This document shows, one piece after another, positions 3,173-28,707 of a stretch of 64,000 nt of DNA. The stretch comes from Lingula anatina (Eukaryota; Animalia; Brachiopoda). The notes under the pieces were generated by a model that had not been told where the DNA came from, did not search any database, and saw only the letters and a program-made list of their open reading frames with translations. The stretch lies in the NCBI GenBank assembly GCA_051362555.1, contig CM120647.1, positions 6,758,001-6,822,000 of the forward strand, read 5' to 3'. Every line of letters starts with the position of its first letter. The first letter of the stretch is position 1. A program made the position numbers and the translations under genes.

Positions 3173-6100
3173 TCAAAGACTCGGATTGTTTTCTCCATCT
3201 AATTCTGCAAAGTCAAGTTTATCAAAAATATCTTGCAAACTCTCTATTTCTCGTCTTTTTCTTGGTAAATGCCCTGAATAAGAGGTAACCAGTGGGCTTG
3301 TCTTGCCTGAAGCCCCATCTACAGTCTTGTTTACATTTTTGCTCTCTTCCTCACAGCATTCTTCATGTACCATATCAACTTCTATTGGATCAATGACATC
3401 GCTGCTGTCTTTAAAAATAACATGTCTTTCCTTGTCTCTAGACACTTGTGATTTGGTTAGCTGTGGAATGAGAAGGGGATCACATGGGGTACCATGTGAC
3501 TTGTCATGTGATGCATCATGTGAGGGGCTGTCACCAGCTGTATGTTCAGTGACAGTGGAATGGCTGCTGTCGGATGAGGTAGATTCAGTCGAACTACGTG
3601 GCCCTGAATCGCAATCAGGTTCCTCGATGCCAACAGATAGTGTTCCTTCTTCCTGTGAGGCTGTGGCATTTAGGGGAGCTGCACCACTTGCACCCACGCA
3701 TTCTGATACTACATTTTCTACATGCATCTCAGTGCCCTGTGAAGCTTGAAATGAAGAACAAATTGGATCCTCTTTCCCGTTCTCCTTCTCACCCTCCTCG
3801 GCACTTTCCTCCAGATCTGTCACACACATGGGCTGCTCATAGGAACCCTCGGATTCTGTGTGCGAAATCGAGCGCGAGTAACTAAATGCATTGCTGTCTG
3901 CACTCTCAGGAAGGGAGGAAAGACTGTGGTGTTCAACCTCTTGAACGCTGATATCTGGCAAGGTACGAACTTCCCCTCGGACTGGGCCAGGAAGGTGATC
4001 GTAGTATTTCTGCAATGACAATGTTTTTATGAAAATATGCTGGATTAAAAAAAAAAAAAAGACAGCAATCCTGGTAAAAATACTGATGCTATAAGGGCTG
4101 TAAAGGAAGAAAATCAACATGCTATAAGGGCTATAAAGGAATAAACATCAACAAAAAGTGCAAAAAATTAATTTTTACCGTAAAAGAAATTCAGTCATGC
4201 CATTTCCAAAAGAAAGCTGTCTCTTTAACAAACAATGCCACTCAGTAACTTAAAAGCAGTAACTGTGGTACCTCTAAAATTAATTTTTTCTGTGAATAAA
4301 GGGTCTCTACAAAATGTTCCCAAACATTCAAATATGAGCCACATAAATTATTTTTCATCATGTCTTGTAACATCGAGAATCGCCACTTGTGTTGTGAAAG
4401 TTACCTTTCTGGCACGAAGCTGTTCAATAGAAGCTGTAATCTCGTCTGTGTGGGCAGGTGCCATAAGATTGAGAGCAGCAAACTGGGTCAAGGTCTGAGG
4501 AGTGTGACTGATTGGCTTGTTCTAAAATAGGTCAAGTATACAGCCAATTATATAACTCCAAATTATGTTTACTTCATAGTCAATGATATGATTGGCTTGT
4601 TCCAAAATAGGTCAATTACTAATAGCACATGATGTATGCCTTCATTAATCCTATAGTTGTCTCAATCAAATAAATAAAGAATATGGAATAACATTCTTGA
4701 CACTCAGATGCAGGTGGTGAGGGTTGATATTCCATTTATATCACATTTGTATTTGTCTGTCCTAAAAATTCCCATATCTATTTTTCTTTTGAAATCACAG
4801 GAAAACAAGGAAGCCCAAATGAACCTTTATTTGTTCAGAATATATATTTTTTTATAAATGGTACAAAACATCCAAATTAAATCCAAGTTTGAGCAATGAT
4901 ACAAGGGTGGTGTTTTTTTTTTTTTAATCCATGACAAATCAAAATTTCCCTTAATCCTGGAGAAGTTTTCATAATCTACATATCCCTAATGTGTATTTGA
5001 CATACCTGAGCCCTCTTCCTGTCCCTTTTGCTTCTCTTAGAAGTCTGCTTCTTCCATCCTCCAGGGATGGTGTCTTCCTCAGTGGACCTTTTCCTTAACA
5101 CATACATGCCTTCTGCCTCTTCTACAAAGGAGGGATTTTCTGGAAATATAACAATGAATTTAGGATTTTTTTTTTAAATATGAACATGCTTTCTGCCTCT
5201 TCTACAATGGAGGGATTTCCTGGAAATGGAAATGTCAGACTGAATTTAAAATCATTTAATACGAACATGCCTTCTGCCTCTTCTACAATGGAGGGCTTTC
5301 CTGGAAATATGACAATAAATTTCAAATCATTTAATACGAACATGTCTGTTACTCCTAAAACAAAGTATGGGGTCCTTGACAATAAAACACAAAATCAAAA
5401 AGATGAAGTGGACATTCTCTGTTGTTAAAACTACACTTATCTGCTCAACTCTAGTCAGCCAATGATGCCATAAAAGTACTTACCCTGAACGCCCACGTCT
5501 CCTGCCGTTTCTGTCCTCGTCTCTGGGTTGAGAAAACGCTGCAGATAGGTGATCAACGCTGAACACATTAGTTTTTCATTTTCATAGGGTTCTCTTGTGG
5601 CCTCGTATTGCTCTCTGAATATCAAAAAATATCACAACATATCAGAATAAATTGTAACAGTAGGAAGACTTCAAGTACAGTTAAACTATAGACTCCAGTT
5701 TTCTTTTGAACACTGAAATATTTGTTTGTATCTACATAGGGTAAAACGTTCATGGAAACTAATGTGGTTAGGCCATATTTCACATTATTCAAAATTATGC
5801 TTATGAGTCATGATTTAAATGGAAAGTTTTTTTTTCCCCCCGAGATCTTTTGGCCATTGCCTATAGCCTTGAGATAGATATTCACTTTCATATAATAATC
5901 AAAGATCAGATAAAAGCTCTCGGAAAGTGCTTTAACATGCAAAGACACGTGCAACTGTTTGAATACTTTGAAACAGGGTTCAAGGGTAACTTACATTTCC
6001 TTCTGCTTCGCCTCAGCATGTGCTCTACGTTCTTCCTCCCGTTTCTTAAAGCTTTCCTGTCTGTGCTTCTTCCTTATCTCACTTCTCTCTGCATTGTAGT

Positions 6101-14200: not shown

Positions 14201-14423
14201 AGACTGCATTCCCATAGATTTTTAGATTGATCTATCCCTGTGGGGAGTCTCACTAGATTGTTGTCAGCCTGGCCACCTTAAATGTCTGTGTTTTCTAAAA
14301 GCTGTAAGGGGGTAATTAACTTTTGTGCGTGCTCGGCTCTCGGAACTTGACAGCAATTTAGAGTGAACCCCCAAGGAGTTAGGTCGATCCGGACAGATCG
14401 ATCTAAATCTATAGGAACCCAGT
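14201..14423. mobile_element. Family-A palindromic MITE (reverse orientation relative to the 28460 and 52112 copies)
   Basis: Contains reverse complements of taactccctgggggttcacgctaaattgc, ttaattacccccttacagc and agtgagactcccc. Confidence 0.8.
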
Positions 14424-16970: not shown

Positions 16971-19900
16971 ATGTTTTACGCACACTTTGTATTAAGTAAA
17001 AAGGGCCCGCTGGCCCGTATCTGGCTGGCGGCCCATTGGGATAAGAAACTGACCAAGGCCCATGTGTTTGAAACAAATATCAGTTCCAGTGTGGAGGCCA
17101 TATTGGAACCAAAGGTAAGTGAAATGTGTATGAGAATTTATTTGGAATTTAATATTACACTATTGACAATGGACTCATCAGCAAGCTGGATTTTTTTTTT
17201 TTCTGTGGGATGAATTTGTTTATTGCAAGTGCAAGATTTCATTAATTTGCACATTTTTATACTTATATATGGTTATGTTAGTCCTTTGATTTCACAATCA
17301 AAATCTCTTGATAAAGACTTGTTTTTCAAGTGAAATCTCTGTCAATATTTATATTTCACTAATTAAAAAATGTTATGTTTATACACTGTTATTGATGGCA
17401 TGTCTGTCAAATGTAGCAAAATGCTTATATGTATATTTATATATTTTCATCGCTTTGTTTTAGGTAAAAATGGCCCTAAGGACATCTGGGCATTTACTAC
17501 TTGGAGTTGTCCGTATCTACTCCCGGAAAGCAAAATATCTTCTTGCTGACTGTAACGAGGCCTTTGTAAAGATTAAGATGGCCTTTAGACCAGGAGTAGT
17601 AGATCTCCCTGAGGAGAACCGAGAAGCAGCAGTGGCCGCCATCACCTTACCAGAAACGTTCCACGATTTTGACACAACAATGGCGGATCTAAAGTAGGTG
17701 TTATACGCATGCTGTCCTTGGTTTATTTGGCAGATGCTTTGTTTTGGTCAAATTTTTCCTCTTGATATTTTAGCCAAAACAAAATTCTGATTAAAAAAAA
17801 AAAAGACATAAATTTATTTAATTAATGTTAATCTTTATTTTTAAAAATTTAAAAAATTGATGAATATTAGAATTTTCTTGAGTTACTTCGAAACTGGCGA
17901 CTCGGTCTGGGCATGGTGTTTTTGGAACACTACTTGTTGATGTTTTGAAATGAGAAGACTTGCTGCAGTATTGCTTTTGTTTTGTTTACCTGACATGCTC
18001 ATTCTGTTTAACTTTTTCAGCGATATAGATGTGAACGCCCAGTTCTCAGTGAACCAGAGCAGACCAGAGGAGATCACGATGAGAGAAGACTTCGGGAACA
18101 TCACCCTGGTTGGAGACGATGGCTTTGGTAAGAGAATTAACACAGTCATGAATTTTGTCTTCAGGTAGTTGTTAGGTTGAAGAGTTATTTCTTCAAAGAA
18201 TGATTTCACCTGTGTAAGGATTCAGGAAGTTGGAATGGTTGCCTTCTTGACAACAGGCCAGGTGGGTTGAAAGGAAAGCTACTTTAATCTCAAAACCTAG
18301 TATTGGACTTTGAACCAGGATGTATTTTTTATGCTATTGATTGATTGAGTGATTTTGGAGGGAAAAAAAAACAGAGGGAGACAGAGATTGGAGGAGGGGG
18401 TGGATTCAAAGGATAAAATCAAATTCCTTGCCAGTATTATTATTTTTTTTTCAACCAAAAATAAACATACTTCAATGAGTGTAGATAGGAGCAAACATTT
18501 TGTGAGAAGATCTTGTCCATGGTGATGCTAATGCGTAATGCAGATTCCATGTTTTTATTTAGATGACTCTGACGACGATTTAGGAGGCTCAGTTGATGAG
18601 GAGGTCGTTCACTGTCTCATTTGTACTTTCTTTACGCGGGACAAGCGTATAGACATGAACTTGATTTTAGATACCATAGACAGTCTTTTGGCTGAAGAAA
18701 AATGCAATATCTTAGACATTAAAACTATTTTAGAAACAGACCATTACTACACAAGTGCAATTTTCTTTAAAAACCATAGGACGTTTAAAACTAGTACGCC
18801 AAACAAGAGGAAAATGAATAGTAGTAAGAATGGTCAGGTTAAAAATGCCTCTTCTCAGGAACTATCACAGAAAGTGAATGATAGGAGTTCAGAAGGTACT
18901 TCTTTAGTGAATAAATCGCAAACACAATCTTCACTTAATGGCAGCAAAGACTTACCTAACAATGGCAGTGAAGCCTCGTTGCAAGTGTCAACGTGCAATA
19001 GAAATGACAGTTTTCAGTCACAAGACTCTGGGATCGTCTGTGACTGCGATGGAGACGTGTCTGACACCGACTCCGACTGGGCCTTCCAAAGCAACACAAC
19101 GCGGGACGAGGCCACGCAAAAAGAGGGTAAGAGGTCATCTGTAATGGGGTCAAGGTCACTAGCAATAATGAGGGCCAATCCGGTTCACTTAGTGAGCAGC
19201 TTACTTCAGCCTCGGGCCGACTTTCCGTTTTGGAGTCACGAGCCACGAAAACATTGGGTAGTTTGAAATAGATGACCTTAGTAATTAACATCTGAGTGAC
19301 CAGAAAAGTGGGCCTAGTAAAATGGACTGTCCACCTTGAAAAATGCTGTTGATCACCTTGGGGTTACCATGGCGATGACCCCTGACCCCTTAACAGATGG
19401 CTTGTTACTCGCCGCTCAGACCACCCAGAGAAATAGAAAACTTTTTTTTCCATTAAGTTCCATTACCTTATAGCCTAGCTGTATAACAGCAAACACAAGA
19501 GACCAAAGTTTACGACACGCATTTATACTATAGTCATGTGGCTTCTGGCTCCAAGATGTCGCATGCTGTCCTGTACTTGTGCATGCACACCCATCTCGTT
19601 TTTGCTTACTCCCTGTCACTGTGTGCATGGTGATCTTTTCGCTAGCTCTCAACTATTCTCTGAAAGATTAATATGCACGTGATTTGGCTTCTAGAGGATG
19701 CAAAATAAATTTGGCCATAAGATATCACGCATGCATTATTTATGAGCTCTTGCTTGTCAACCCATTTCTGTTTTGCCTTATTATAGGTCCAAAAAAAAAA
19801 AAAAGCATCAAATTGCACATGCTTTTTCATTTAGAAAAACAGGGGGAAAAAACGGCCTATCTTTTTGTTTTGCTTATAGATATTCTGCAAGTAATCGGCT

Positions 19901-22900
19901 TATAAATTAATCAATTTTTCAGCATGTAGATTAATCAAATGCAGTCCGTATTATTAAAACTTAAAATTTGGATTAGGGCATTGAGTATAACACAGTTAAC
20001 TGGTTATGGTATTATGCCCTGCATCCTCTGGTGAAGTAGCCTAACTTGATTTATATCTTGTGTCTCATCGTTTTCTCTGTCCAGGTATTTCATTTTGTTG
20101 TCTTCAGTTAATTTGGATGTATGTCTGTCATTGTTGCTTTTAATTTTGTTATCCACCTCCCTGGTCATTTAATGTGTACTATTTTAATTTTTCGTGACTG
20201 AAAATGTGATTGCTTTTAACTATGATTGGTTGAGTAAGAACATTAGATAGAAGACTGAGCACATTTCATTTCCTTAAATTTGTGAATGCTTCCGACAAAG
20301 TATGACAGATTTTGCTCCTGATAGAAGTTTATTGGCAAATACACAATGTTGTAACAGCGCTTCTTGCATTCTTATTTATTTCCTCTGATTTGTAATTGCA
20401 AGTAGATTTATAGCCTTCATTAATTAGGGTTCTGCACACTTAATTTTGGTAAAAAAAAAAAAAAAAAAAAAGAATTTTAGAATTGAGACATTGCATTTGT
20501 CTTCATTTTGTGACTACACTGAAGTTTGTTTGTGATATTATTTTATATTAAATTGTATTGTTTCAGGTGATATTGGATTTGATGATAGGGAGATGTTACG
20601 GGACGCTACCCTGGGGGTGGAGGATTCCCTGTACAAGAACCCAGACTCCTCCAACATTCTACTGGACAGCGTCCGAGACAAGAGCAAGGACGCGGAGACC
20701 TCGCTGCCCAAACCCATGGACGTGGACCTCGATGCTCCCATTAAAGATGATGGTTTTGGTGGTGCTATAGGTGGAGGCATGCTAGGTATGGTAAAAGTAA
20801 TAGTGATACTGGTCTATAATTAATAATAACAACTTTTGTTCCTTTGACTTTGCCAAAGTTTTTAAAAAAGTTATTTTTGTTTAAAGTGTAGATTTCATTA
20901 AATGAAGATTTCAGTAGTATGCAGTTTTGCATGCAGCAGTTCTTTTAAATTTATAATAAATTGCCCAGTTGCAAAATTACTAGTATCGTATGTCAACAGT
21001 GGTTCCTGTGAATGTTGTCCACTATCTTTTTGTTTATAATATTTGCTTGGTTTTAATATGCATCCTAATTTAGCTGTAGCACTCCCATCTATGTTACATA
21101 AAAAGTTCTTTTATAGGGTTAGGTTCCAATCTTCTAGTGGCTTTTGATGTTGATCTCTTGCGTAACCATACATAATTTGACACCAAGTGTGATTTAGATC
21201 ATATTCCTTACCAATAAACTATTTTCTGTAGCCTGACGTTTTACCTGTTTTCATGTAGATGTAAGGTTTTGCAAAAAAAAAAAAAAAAAAAAAAAAGAAG
21301 AAGAGGAAAAAAAAAAACTGTTAAACTCGTTATAAATTCTAATCTGTTTTTACTAATACAATATAATTGTGTTTTGCATGTGTTACTAACACTAGAATCT
21401 GTGGTGCTAATTTCTGGATATTGTGTGTATGTTGCCTTGGTCCCAATTTCATAAACACATCTGTTCAAAGTTTTGGCTTGCAATGACCAACATGAACTTG
21501 TGTTTGACTAAAAAAAAAGAGATTTGAAAAAAAAATCCCCTTGCTTTTCCGGTATATATATTTTTTTTCTGGTAGTAGAATTAGATGAAGATGCTTTTAG
21601 ATTGTGTTCTCTGTGCTGTCATTTTTGTCTTCCTGGCTAATTAATATAGAGATGTGATGTGGCTTATGATTTTAGAGAAGATGTTTAATAAGCTTTAAAA
21701 CTCACCTATCTTTAAAACTGATGAAGTAGATTAGATCACTCTGTTATTAGTGGACAAAGCTTTAAAAAACCCTGTGCACCTTAATACCTAGTAATTATCC
21801 TGTTCCAAAATATAGCACCATAGGTTCGCTGTTAATTGTTCATTTTATTAACCAAAGCGCGGGCACCTGTCAGTGACGATGATGATGACGATGGCGGTCC
21901 AATGGGTGGAGACGATGACGACGATGATGATGATAATTTTGGTGGGGACGTTGACCATGCTTTGTTTGGTAAGTTTACTAACTCGGTTCTCTGTTCATTG
22001 TTTGCTAAAGCCCCCTTTACACTGGACGGGGTCCTTTCTGCGTCCCATAGTACAGTGACGTTTGAGAGTAAAAAAAAAATGTTTCACGTGCCAACAACTG
22101 GCCAATCATTAAGCGTTCATTCTGCAACCAAAGCGATGCTTGTGCTTCCTTTCTACGACCACAGCGATGCCAGTTTCATGGTCGCAGAAAGGACGCCGTC
22201 CAGTGTGAAAGGGTTTAAGAAGAAAAATTTCAGGTAATTGATGAGAGGAGTTGTGCTTTTGAAAGTTGGCACTTCAGCTGTCTTTGTGTCAAGCTGTATG
22301 TAATGTTGCTCTACAAGGATTGGCTGAGAGACTGGAAGTTACAACTTGAAAAATACAGCTTCTCTCATGAGTTGATAAAAGAAAACAATCCAAGCTTGCC
22401 CATGAAAAAATAACTGAAATGACCTTGTAAATTAGAAAAAAAAATTTTTTTTCTTTTGATAACTACTCGTCAATATGACATTTACTCCTTGTCTGGGACA
22501 GATTTGTGTGCACTCGTCTGTGAAAGATTTTTATGTATGCTGTGTTAAGCCCCCTTTACACTGGACGGCGTCCTTTCTGCGTCCAGCAGTACGGCCCCAT
22601 TTGAGAGTTAAAAAATTATAATACTTTACTTGCCGACAACTGGCCGATCTTTGAGCATTCTTTCTGATACCAAATCAATGCTCGTGCCTCCTAATTACGA
22701 CCACAGCGACGCCAATTTCATGGTCGCAGAAAGGACGCCGTCCAGTGTAAAGGGGGTATTAACAGTGTCACTGTTTTATTGTTTCCCAGGTGAAGGTTTC
22801 ATGGAGGGAGGACCTCTGTTTGAGGATGCTCCAATGGCTGAAGTCTCTATGGTCTCTGAAGTTGCCCCCATGGATGCTCATGCTAAACAAGGTAATTAAA

Positions 22901-25900
22901 ACAAATCCATTCCGTACAGGGTGTCTTATAAGTCTGGTCACATGGGCAAAATGAATATTTCCAATCAGAAAATGTCAACAAAAACTTTCTGAATCAAGTA
23001 AAGAAATATGATGTATTTTATTAGAAAGAATAATAAATTGATCAACAGGAAATATTTGATATGTGGGGCATAAAAAAGTTAGTTATAAACAGCATGCCCA
23101 GAGGAAAGGGTACCCTGTATTTTGTATAAAAAATATTAGCCAAATTACAGTGTAAAGCAAAATGCAGGACATTTGTGTATAAATAATCTTTTTCAAGATA
23201 TCAGTGTTAAACTTCAATTTTTCTCAAATTTCAGTTGAGAAGATCCAAGCTGTGGTCCATGATGATGGTCCAGAGACCACAGGGGCTGGTGTGTCCACCA
23301 TGCCCAACCAGACCACACTAGTCCAGAATGAGGAAGAGGCGTTTGCTCTGGAACCACTAGATGTCACTAGTGTCCATGGTAAGTGAATGGGATGTTTTAG
23401 GAAGTTAAGCGGTGTTGAGAAAAAAAGAAAGAAAAGAAACAGCAAAAGAAATTTTAAAATGATCGAAATTAAATGATTTGCAGTTTCATTAGCTTTAATA
23501 AAAATGTATGCACAAATAAGATAATGAACTACTTATATATATATAATATATAAATGAATTATGTAATAATAATAATATTATATAATAACAAATGAAATAA
23601 CATATGAAATGCTAACTTGAATGCATCTGAAGTATTATGATATAAATTGCAAGTAGTAATAGATAAGTAAATAAATAATTAAATATAATTTTGGATGAAA
23701 AGCCCTCCCTAAAGAAAATCTCAACTTACCGTACTAGGCACAGAGAAGAGGACAAAGAGGAAAAGAAAACTGATCGTAGACGAACAGAAGTGTATACAGA
23801 GTGAGACCATGAAGTTACAGCTGTCAGACGCGTCCGACATCCTGACGACCCTCGACCTTGCCCCGCCCACCAAGAAGCTGATGCACTGGAAGGAGACGGG
23901 AGGGGTGGAGAAGTTGTTTGCTTTGCCAGGGAGAGCACTACCCAGTAGGGTGATATCTAAGGTGATTAAATGGTGAAGGTGTCTGTCAGTTGTTGGTATT
24001 AGGAATGCCTGCAAAATCTGTTTTCAGCCTCTTGTACTTTGGAATACCTAGGAATGAAAAGTTGGCTGTTACTTCTCAATATAATCTCTCTTCATCTTGA
24101 AGCACTTAATCCATCGCTGTTCTAATTTACGTATCCCTTCAAAATTGGAAGTCTACATCCTGGTCCCCCAAGTACTAGTTTACTGCATCTATGACACCTT
24201 CATTGCTTCCCAATTTTCTTCCACAAAGGTTAGTTTTCAGTTTTGGGAACAGATATAAGTCAGTAAAGGATAAATCAGGAGAATATTGGAGATGAGGAAG
24301 AACTCCGAAGCTGCATTCAGTTGCAGCAACCATGGCAACTTGGGACTTTTTCCATTTTGTCAGTTTTACGCATCCTTCTCGTCTTTACAGAGACTTCCAG
24401 GTGTAATAATAAGCGTTGGAATCCTATTCTCTCAACCAATGACCTTCAATAAGATGAAATTATCGACTAATTTGGATTGTCTGTCACTGTAGTGAATCAA
24501 TGTCTGTCTAGCATCAGTAAAAATTCCAAGTTTATATACATTGTCATTGCCAGAGTTAATAATGACCTGGTTATCATTGTGTACAAGAAAAGATGTCAAA
24601 GTTGTTCTGACGCAGTATTCCAGCCAGCCAACGCCAGAATTATAAGCAGAGTGTGAGTTATGACACAGCAAGTGGAGTTTATCAGTTGAATATGTATAAC
24701 TCTCACAACATAAACTGCACCAAGGCAAGCGTCCAACGCTTCTGTATGACAACGCCCACAACGGTCCAGTTGTTTTACTGACTGTCTCTGTACGATATAG
24801 TGGAATTTCAGTGACTGCATATTTGTTGATGTGTCAAATCTCAATTGTTCTCATCCCGGAACTTCTGCCACTTGCAACAATATAAGGACAGTGTTTTAGC
24901 TTTCTAGAAGTCCTCCAGAATAATCTGAGCAGGATAGACTGTGTCAAACGCTGTTCTTAGGCCTGGTATGATGTCTTGGTGACCGCATGAGTGATGTGGT
25001 CAGTCTGGAGTCCCTGGACGGTCGAGTCCCAGTCCCTGTTTCGGCGCCAAATTTTGTAACAGTAGCTTCTTTTATTCCAAAATATTCTAATTTTTTAAGG
25101 ACTTCTTAAAGCCGAGAACCTCTTAATCGTACCTCGTAATCTACTCTACATTTCACATTCTATTGCAGCTGTTTAACAAGAACCTGGTCACACAGCCAGT
25201 CACAGAAGAAGACCAGGAAGCTGGGGAGAAGATTGAGCTGTCTGAGGAGCCGGAGGTGGCCAGAGAGGAGGAACAGCCAACCATGGGTAGGTGGTGCAGT
25301 GCTGATCTTATAACAGTATCAGAAGTATGCTTTGTGGTAATCAGATGGGAATGAAAGATTCATTTCTTCACCATAGACTAGCGTGCTGACGATATGACTT
25401 GAGTTGACATCACAACAGGCAATTAGTTCAGTCTCCTTGTGAAATCTTGGTATGAAAGTCTTTAATGATGACATTTTCGTGTGATTGAAGTCTGCTCCCA
25501 TAGTACATTATGAAAAAATGACAAAAGTGAAAAACTTTGAATTAAAATTATGGAATAAGAATAATTATTGATTTCAGCACTGGAGGAGATTTTGCCTCCA
25601 CCAGAGCAGGAAAGCACAATCGTACCACAAGAAAAATCAACCACTGTGGAACCAGAGAAGAAACGCTCTCGAAAAGAAAAAGCAGCTGACAAGGAAAATC
25701 GCCTGGAGAAGTCGTCCATATTGGATCATCCTCCTGTCACACCAGGACCAGAGGACAACGATGTTGGGTTGATAGATTTTCAGGACAATGTTGAACTTCC
25801 CGTTGATTTAGATGGGCAGCCAGTGGTATGTATATTCTATATATTTTATATAAAAATTGGCATCACCAAGAAATATTTTACTACCAAAATGGCTTGAAAA

Positions 25901-26586
25901 TAGGCCCTGAAAAATTCAGTTCTTATGTAGGCCCTCAAAATTCAGTTTTTCTTGAAAAGTAAACATCTTTTTGCCTCGGTGATATTTTGTTTACATTTGT
26001 GTGCCATCAGGTATTGTTTACTCTCAATACAACATAAAATATTCTGAAAAACTTGCTCACCACAATAAATTGCCTTTAATACCCCAGCAGTAAAACAGAC
26101 TTAGAAAATGTAATGTACAGAAGCTCCTTTCAAGCAAAATCTTCTGACCAAGGCACTGGAGATATTAGTAAAGCTAGACAATTCCGTATTTTGTTCAAAT
26201 TTTAAACAAAAAAAAAAATTGAAAAAATCCAAAATGAATTTTATGTTTATGTATGTGCAAGTATTCAATGTCTTTATCCTGTGACCCTCTAGTATAGAAA
26301 AAATATGTAATTTGCATTTCTTTTGCAGGAGGAGACGGCAGAACAAGAAGAGATTCGATGGAACAAGCGGTCCCTTCAAATGCTCCATTCACTTCAGACC
26401 TTACTAAAACGTACGGACAGTATCAAATTCCAGGATGTCACCAATCGCAATAATCGCAAACAGGCTGCGTCGAAGTTTTATGCCCTCTTGGTGCTAAAGA
26501 AGCAGAACGCTGTACAAGTGGCCCAGTCTGAGCCTTACACGTCGATTCACATAAGCAAAGGACCTCAATTCACTGCAGTGTTTTAA
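16971..26586 (+). CDS. RAD21: Cohesin alpha-kleisin RAD21, ~634 aa; exons 16971-17114, 17464-17693, 18021-18127, 20567-20785, 21858-21968, 22790-22891, 23235-23378, 23738-23961, 25169-25286, 25578-25825, 26329-26586
   Basis: N-terminus [27 protein letters not shown]; [23 protein letters not shown]; [16 protein letters not shown]; [10 protein letters not shown]...[22 protein letters not shown] (STAG-binding); separase-type ExxR motifs (EMLR, EVAR); C-terminal [17 protein letters not shown] winged helix. GT-AG junctions are phase-consistent (1905 nt). Confidence 0.97.
18563..19126 (+). CDS. Candidate alternative (cassette) exon of RAD21, 564 nt / 188 codons, phase 1-1; or a terminal exon running to the stop at 19266
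   Basis: gtttttatttag|AT acceptor at 18562 and GAG G|gtaaga donor at 19126, stop-free in between. Phase matches the 18127 donor and the 20567 acceptor. Confidence 0.6.
22009..22215. mobile_element. Harbinger/Tourist-like MITE, copy 1
   Basis: ~30-bp TIR agccccctttacactggacggggtcctttctgcg / cgcagaaaggacgccgtccagtgtgaaagggtt; TAA target duplication. Confidence 0.85.
22548..22758. mobile_element. Harbinger/Tourist-like MITE, copy 2 (same family and orientation)
   Basis: Same TIRs and internal sequence as 22009-22215; flanked by tta. Confidence 0.85.
22917..23117. mobile_element. Tc1/mariner-type MITE remnant
   Basis: ta|cagggt ... accctg|ta termini with TA duplication; only a short TIR match. 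Confidence 0.4.
24068..24480 (-). mobile_element. Degenerate mariner transposase C-terminal fragment in a RAD21 intron
   Basis: Minus strand reads [37 protein letters not shown]...[17 protein letters not shown], frameshift, [24 protein letters not shown]. This has the mariner YSPDL motif and the canonical C-terminus. Confidence 0.85.
25032..25076 (-). mobile_element. LTR-retroelement remnant: LTR 3' end plus tRNA-Lys(UUU) primer-binding site
   Basis: Minus strand aataaaagaagctactgttaca-aaatt-tggcgccgaaacagggac: AATAAA, a ...CA LTR end, then a 16/18 match to TGGCGCCCGAACAGGGAC. Confidence 0.7.
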
Positions 26587-28459: not shown

Positions 28460-28707
28460 GACTGGGTTCCCATACTTAGATCGATCCAACTGGATTGACC
28501 TAACTCCCTGGGGGTTCACGCTAAATTGCTATCAGCTCAAGAGGCTTAATGTGTTTGTCACGCCAACCGAATCAGCTAGGGGTAAAGATAATTATCCCTT
28601 AACAGTTTTACAAGGAGTGACAGATGTTTAAGCCGGTTAGTTTGATAACAATTTAGTGAGACTCCCCAGGGAGACAGATCGAACCAAATGTCTGTGGGAA
28701 TGGTCCC
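28460..28707. mobile_element. Family-A palindromic MITE
   Basis: gggttcccatacttagatcgatc...taactccctgggggttcacgctaaattgc...tttagtgagactcccc...tgggaatgg; shared with 14201, 45185 and 52112. Confidence 0.8.

Follow-up and report, generated by a model that had tools for sequence, protein, structure and literature searches.

A conserved, optional cassette exon in the cohesin gene RAD21 of Lingula anatina and other lophotrochozoans

In the brachiopod Lingula anatina, one intron of the RAD21 gene holds a long stop-free frame bounded by splice signals, which raises the question of whether this frame is used as an exon and, if it is, what a RAD21 protein containing it would do. Cohesin variety is usually ascribed to the paralogues REC8, RAD21L and STAG1-3, and the removal of cohesin to separase or WAPL. 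A sequence-only reading of the locus had proposed an in-frame cassette that gives a second RAD21 isoform from the same gene. The analysis covers a window of 64,000 nucleotides of contig CM120647.1 (assembly GCA_051362555.1, positions 6,758,001 to 6,822,000 of the forward strand), and positions given without a prefix are those of the window.

The host gene was identified as RAD21, with both PF04825 (Rad21_Rec8_N) and PF04824 (Rad21_Rec8) scoring above the Pfam cut-off. The short form has 52-58% identity to lophotrochozoan RAD21, measured over the full length of its top 25 matches. In a quick tree of 31 rows, with no REC8 among them, the window protein lies among the lophotrochozoans and outside the molluscs, where Owenia is nearest by path and a well-supported sister is absent. 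The 12-exon model given in Table 1 has no internal stops and encodes 635 aa without the cassette and 823 aa with it. For the exons after 20785, loose-end reads support the joins to 21858 and 22790, and the later exons are those of the sequence model. A 17689>18017 joint in the reads was taken as an allele effect beside the genuine 17693>18021 junction.

Table 1. Features of the RAD21 locus in the window, with the basis of each assignment
Feature	Position	Strand	Basis
RAD21 coding exon 1 (aa 1-48)	16971-17114	+	sequence model; loose-end reads join to 17464
RAD21 coding exon 2, Rad21_Rec8_N, SMC3-binding	17464-17693	+	PF04825 E 2.4e-20; junction 17693>18021 read
Coding exon 3, ends with F160 and one base; N-terminal part of human 154-171 match	18021-18127	+	
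T-rich tract and AG acceptor of cassette	18540-18562	+	used in 8/8 runs
Cassette exon, 564 nt, 188 codons, phase 1/1	18563-19126	+	junction reads, ~15% inclusion
Conserved N-terminal block: acidic LGG, helix, short loop, helix	18571-18693	+	profile and helix prediction
STPNK, candidate CDK site / PLK1 polo-box docking site	18793-18807	+	S[ST]Px[KR] match
DSGI, candidate beta-TrCP phosphodegron core, second serine absent in Lingula	19024-19035	+	DSG[ILV] motif
Cassette donor and conserved intronic element, 5' arm of predicted RNA stem	19127-19155	+	
3' arm of predicted RNA stem	19380-19408	+	partly alike to L007 arm
Open frame past donor to stop, unused as exon in reads	19127-19266	+	read depth
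Coding exon 4: rest of loader segment and separase site 1 (R172, short form)	20567-20785	+	
Downstream RAD21 coding exons	21858-21968, 22790-22891, 23235-23378	+	sequence model
Downstream RAD21 coding exons	23738-23961, 25169-25286, 25578-25825	+	sequence model
Last RAD21 coding exon	26329-26586	+	PF04824 E 1.9e-16

Some other features of the gene were seen in passing. The 111-nt, very acidic exon at 21858-21968 is a second alternative exon; most reads join 20785 to it, and 24 loose-end reads in run X3 join 20785 directly to 22790. Isoform pairs with a difference of 13-23 aa are present for Gigantopelta, Liolophura and Mytilus RAD21. One RAD21 intron contains two MITE-like copies of ~205 bp with ~36-bp terminal inverted repeats (22008-22213 and 22547-22756), and inverted repeat arms ~14 kb apart flank the whole gene (14207-14406 and 28476-28702; 83 nt at 76% and 59 nt at 86%), probably as two copies of a dispersed repeat.

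The segment 18563-19126 lies between a T-rich tract with a terminal TAG and the donor G/GTAAGA, and both flanking junctions are in phase 1. The acceptor, the donor, the phases and the length of 564 nt agree with the sequence-only reading, as do the acidic start, the HCLIC stretch, the SQ/TQ sites (six) and the DSGIV motif of the encoded peptide. The stop-free frame is also present, although it runs from stop to stop over 244 codons (18532-19266) and not over 242. When the 2439-nt intron was resampled 1000 times with a first-order Markov model, 2 of the resamples contained a frame of 188 codons and none contained one of 244.

RNA reads were taken from eight of the nine runs listed for the species, which come from three studies, with 6-30% of each of the eight used. 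Reads across the upstream inclusion junction, 18127>18563, were found in all eight runs, and reads across the downstream junction, 19126>20567, in five of the eight. Pooled over the runs, 102 reads cross the upstream junction, 121 cross the downstream junction and 635 skip the cassette, where the corresponding upstream/downstream/skipping counts are 48/54/282 in X1, 33/60/246 in X3, 2/0/10 in X4, 1/0/13 in X5, 3/0/23 in X6, 2/2/20 in X7, 10/4/20 in X8 and 3/1/21 in X9. The pooled inclusion is 0.15, with a per-run range of 0.04-0.26, and the long form is the minor form in each of the eight runs. The RAD21 depth per letter (17464-20785) is ~15-fold higher in the P1 runs than in those of P2 and P3, and inclusion is minor throughout. 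With both inclusion junctions and the skipping junction present in RNA, the cassette is a genuine alternatively spliced exon, and the second isoform that had been proposed is borne out. The cassette keeps the frame without a premature stop (823-aa frame; 576 nt in L007, a contig described below), hence it is not a poison exon.

The sequence-only reading had also suggested that read-through of the donor to the stop at 19266 would make the cassette a terminal exon, giving an SMC3-only kleisin unable to close the ring. Past the donor the frame indeed has a further 46 codons before its stop, in L007 it likewise continues, and the three runs of study P2, with their low counts, contain 6 upstream-junction reads and no downstream ones. 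In X1 and X3, however, the depth of 34-93 over the exon falls to 0.5-0.7 at 19215-19335, 114 reads splice to 20567, and a 3' end past the cassette donor was looked for in the reads and none was called; in X5, X6, X8 and X9 the depth is 0-1 at 19184-19271. Moreover, the tails of the window and L007 are out of mutual frame after four codons. Since past 19214 the depth in X1 and X3 is ~1% of the exon's own, the reads do not support transcripts that continue to the 19266 stop, and we consider such a truncated kleisin extremely improbable.

The minor inclusion could also be explained if the long form were made mainly in germ cells, where it would do the job of RAD21L or REC8, so that the 4-26% inclusion would represent the germ-cell share of each sample. 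Such a meiotic kleisin would fit the variation of inclusion among the runs, and the control by CDK1, PLK1 and beta-TrCP considered below would suit oocyte divisions. In the Manila clam, rad21 is named once among genes with sex-contrasting SNPs in the accessible text of one paper (PMC9803972), and one of its supplements contains no mention of rad21. However, the long form is minor in all eight runs of the three studies, whatever the RAD21 level, the low counts in six of the runs make the spread of inclusion weak evidence, and a profile of the conserved block of the exon found no Rec8 chain among the solved structures. A germline role of this kind is regarded as quite improbable.

Substitutions were listed from runs X7-X9, which diverge by several percent from the window, using the best-supported 40 of 85 and 40 of 70 rows. 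The 21 listed changes in the cassette comprise 14 synonymous and 7 non-synonymous ones, 15 of them at third positions, which gives a pN/pS of 0.13-0.20 and, over the transition weights used, a binomial p of 4e-6 to 3e-4. Of the eight listed changes that fall in the first 81 codons, seven are synonymous, and no indels in the cassette are found among the best-supported rows listed. The cassette is under purifying selection. Since all 29 listed changes in the flanking exons are synonymous, the cassette is constrained less tightly than its neighbours.

Direct searches with the 187-aa exon peptide returned 857 candidates, none of which reached E 0.01 among longer proteins. The peptide gave no match among 1.84 billion protein representatives, no Pfam family and, in the protein atlas, rows below 0.9 only; exon 4 as a query likewise gave no match. 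The homology was recognised only by comparing the same junction in RAD21 relatives, of which 120 of the 3770 matches listed, plus cluster members, were surveyed. An insert of 110-444 aa follows the same DDGF junction in at least 15 named lophotrochozoan RAD21 models, the carriers being Lineus, Ridgeia, Liolophura, two Patella, Gigantopelta, Batillaria, Aplysia, two Biomphalaria, Bulinus, Lymnaea, Bradybaena, Elysia marginata and Plakobranchus. The carriers thus span snails, a chiton, a ribbon worm and annelid worms. At least eight of the 15 insert-bearing species also show the form without the insert.

When a profile of the conserved block was run over 5614 frames of 62 further loci, one match was obtained (E 5.9e-5), and this match lies in the same RAD21 intron of an unannotated annelid-like contig, L007, where it forms a 576-nt exon in phase 1/1. 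The same phase-1 intron is present in 36 of the 36 genomic loci examined. The other side of the distribution is that 35 of the 36 loci spanning this intron (25 distinct intron starts) have no insert and no frame above 88 codons, so that several lineages do without the exon and it is dispensable in some of them. No insert was found in the bivalve, cephalopod, Tubulanus, Owenia and Capitella models seen, nor in those of Priapulus, amphioxus and arthropods, which represent only some of the isoforms of these species. From this comparison of the named species and L007, by which the expectation of conservation in relatives was answered in the affirmative, the cassette is to be read as an ancient optional RAD21 exon that recurs at one junction across Lophotrochozoa.

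Both selection and distribution bear on the view that the cassette has no selected function and represents splicing noise, a neutral exonisation or an exon derived from a transposon. Its minor inclusion, its patchy distribution and the lack of a direct match for its peptide in two very large protein searches would be natural on that view. It is contradicted by the purifying selection, by the frame kept in L007, and by a homologous block and a motif order that recur in at least three phyla. No Pfam domain, no repeat copy and no flanking terminal repeats were found within the window, and the search for a transposon source raised by the sequence-only reading, made for copies within the window and in the protein and Pfam searches, gave no sign of a recent origin. 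An exon without function is thus held to be very improbable.

The exon's N-terminal part is where the likeness among the inserts was measured. A profile of the first 51 residues, built from 13 relatives, scores the window exon at 18.1 bits, compared with 5.0 bits for the best of 2000 shuffles and at most 7.7 bits for 90 insert-free RAD21 proteins, and relatives left out of the profile score 18.6-51 bits. In a window-wide scan of 1190 frames, the cassette frame came first with E 1.7e-4, and the next two frames had E 9.8e-4 and 1.3e-3. The block begins within ~7 residues of the junction in every insert, despite the range of total lengths, and the shortest insert, that of Batillaria with 110 aa, contains little beyond the helical block, a DSG motif and an acidic tail. 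The block is predicted as two helices; a full-length model of the chiton long form, with a mean pLDDT of 41, was used for the two helices only. In the heterobranch snail inserts, a cysteine-rich stretch (CxxC ... CxC) directly follows the helical block.

The two predicted helices would also be expected if the block resembled half of an EF-hand lobe and paired with itself or with a partner, so as to link cohesin rings or bring in a factor, in which case DSG would be a second docking motif and not a degron. Among solved structures, weak matches were obtained to centrin (E 0.44) and troponin C (E 1), and the language-model neighbours of the exon include EF-hand families at 0.83; all of these EF-hand likenesses are below significance. 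No EF-hand Pfam match was obtained for 14 block members, a second atlas search with the Patella block contained no EF-hand rows, and the calcium-binding loop pattern is not visible in the block alignment. Fold searches with a low-confidence 62-aa model (pLDDT 62) gave no match, with Z at most 4.2. An adaptor or dimerisation module of this type is judged improbable.

Linear motifs were counted in a set of 16 related inserts (7 from heterobranch snails and 2 from Patella, with B. pfeifferi left out). DSG[ILV] occurs in all 16 inserts against 0.4 expected from shuffles, where this and the other expected counts overstate independence because the motifs were chosen after inspection and the inserts are related; it occurs in 6 of 93 RAD21 proteins without the insert. 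The DSG motif pointed out in the sequence-only reading is thus the best-conserved linear motif. The extended form DSGx2-4[ST] is found in 14 of the 16 inserts (1.1 expected) and is absent in the window and Plakobranchus, and the window motif, DSGIVCD, has no second S/T. When the profile of the DSG block of the relatives was applied to the window copy, it gave -0.5 bits, and 540 of 2000 shuffles were as good. S[ST]Px[KR], whose window copy is STPNK, occurs in 10 of the 16 inserts (0.6 expected) and is missing from six, the chiton, Ridgeia and Batillaria among them. The SQ/TQ sites, to which the sequence-only reading had also drawn attention, proved not to be conserved, as their frequency is that of chance (present in 11 of the 16 inserts, with 12.1 expected); ExxR motifs likewise show no enrichment in the inserts. 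For CxxC, which is present in 14 of the 16 inserts, a count of 6.8 was expected, and DSG is found twice in most of the mollusc inserts. The extended mollusc motif DSG[IL]G..DPG might serve for docking of a different partner. A reading of DSG as a caspase site was rejected, since conservation is lacking at the four positions that would precede the cut under the caspase cleavage consensus.

The consensus for CDK1-primed PLK1 docking is S-[ST]-P with a basic residue at +3. In the accessible text of the AKAP2 study (PMC11403584), the beta-TrCP consensus is given as DSGxx(x)S and a minimal DSG degron suffices, and the accessible text on Bora (PMC2921497) describes a route from CDK1 to PLK1 to beta-TrCP together with a PLK1 docking model. 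By likeness to these motifs, the long RAD21 may be a short-lived kleisin isoform that carries a beta-TrCP degron primed by CDK1 and PLK1. CDK1 would phosphorylate S-T-P-x-K, PLK1 would dock at the primed S-T-P and phosphorylate DSG, and SCF-beta-TrCP would then ubiquitylate the long form, so that proteasomal loss of the kleisin would open the rings holding it with no need for separase. With the exon in about one in seven transcripts, that share of RAD21 would gain a phospho-dependent destruction signal. This reading is preferred because it accounts for most of the features; as all of its steps are drawn from motifs, we give it slightly less than an even chance.

The position of the insert is also informative with respect to the loader. 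The RAD21 numbering here matches that of human, and the insert lies between F160 and G161, where it splits the segment matching human RAD21 154-171, which is the NIPBL contact according to the accessible part of a review (PMC10003631). Separase site 1 (R172) stays intact downstream of the insert, and the docking motifs described for this site in the available text of PMC12609080 are also downstream of the insertion and kept together with it. Several annelid RAD21 proteins, whether or not they carry the cassette, have no separase-site-1 ExxR where exon 4 begins (L007:4781-4830). An insert between F160 and G161 would break up the NIPBL contact and put the helical block there, and the long form probably differs in its loading or in its loop extrusion. 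Human RAD21 loader-site mutants load less (PMC10303866), and in fission yeast a single change where the kleisin Rec8 meets the loader Mis4 uncouples the formation of loops from cohesion (PMC13253173).

The closest rival to the degron reading follows from this position, namely that the exon acts mainly as a loader/PDS5 switch by splitting the NIPBL segment, with the helical block replacing the second half of the segment, so that loading and extrusion would be altered and stability would be normal. The insertion within the human 154-171 match, the closeness of the block to the junction in inserts of every length, and the weaker loading and the separation of loops from cohesion in the two reports above speak for such a switch. 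However, the phase-1 intron is present in all 36 loci, so the position may merely be that of an available intron, and the switch leaves the DSG and STP motifs unexplained. As the main effect of the exon it is considered rather unlikely, and it can be compatible with the degron reading.

The inclusion level may be related to an RNA element at the donor. The first 14 intron bases after the cassette donor are identical in the window and L007 (L007:3871-3884), compared with 7, 6 and 8 identical bases at three other matching donors, and a further 10-mer in the element is shared. A one-base offset puts the tails of the window and L007 out of frame, so this likeness is not for coding. In both genomes, pairing is predicted between the 30 bases from the donor and an arm that lies 160-220 nt downstream, with a duplex of -38.5 kcal/mol in the window and -34.5 kcal/mol in L007 (0 of 300 shuffles each), compared with at most -21.9 kcal/mol for the other ten window donors; the 3' arms of the stems are partly alike, as judged from these two sequences only. 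No Rfam family matches the donor element. Opening the 9-nt donor costs most at the cassette, 7.5 kcal/mol, which is barely above the 7.2 and 7.1 kcal/mol at two constitutive donors and therefore counts against a strong masking effect, and the whole-region fold z-scores are -1.64 and -2.39. The predicted stem starting at the donor would keep inclusion low and offer a switch. TGACC-type segments downstream of the donor (window 19270-19390; L007:4016-4071 and 4185-4204) could pair with the 5' arm, so that competing structures are possible.

If the degron reading is joined with the altered loader contact and the predicted stem, a splicing switch set by the stem would, since before the split of molluscs, annelids and ribbon worms, have supplied a ring that beta-TrCP can open and that has a different loader surface, as a third way of removal besides separase and WAPL. 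This full scheme is possible, although we place it on the unlikely side. If it is true, one of the largest animal groups could tune cohesin lifetime and genome folding from a single gene. Because a single exon distinguishes the two forms, a direct comparison of their half-life, NIPBL/PDS5 binding and loop extrusion is possible, and the insert provides a natural probe of the RAD21 154-171 interface.

Several known systems resemble parts of this scheme. RNA stems that mask a 5' splice site are known, for example, at MAPT exon 10 and SMN2 exon 7. The predicted duplex likewise begins at the donor of a partly included exon; here, however, 160-220 nt separate the arms, and two distant animals share a letter-identical 5' arm. 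The automated long isoforms of RAD21 in Aplysia (XP_005103220.1), Patella vulgata (XP_050412571.1), Lineus (XP_064652431.1) and Liolophura (XP_064597082.1) share the gene, the insertion point, the homologous N-terminal block and the DSG motif with the cassette form, but they are unlabelled gene-model isoforms. In the literature searched, mostly non-subscription papers, no account of the insert, its conservation or its motifs was found, and by comparison of sequences the cassette is a conserved, hitherto undescribed RAD21 variant, with a mechanism proposed from its motifs. Bora and AKAP2, both SCF-beta-TrCP substrates, have in common with the insert an S[ST]P-type site and a DSG core in a disordered region, as described in the accessible texts (PMC2921497, PMC11403584), whereas here the module would belong to a cassette exon of one of the cohesin ring proteins, the second S/T is missing from the window copy, and the likeness is at the level of motifs. 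REC8 and RAD21L are likewise additional kleisin forms, whose linker differs close to where the loader binds (for Rec8-Mis4, the available part of PMC13253173). In contrast to these paralogues, the long form of Lingula is a splice product of RAD21 itself that keeps all RAD21 domains and is minor in every sample.
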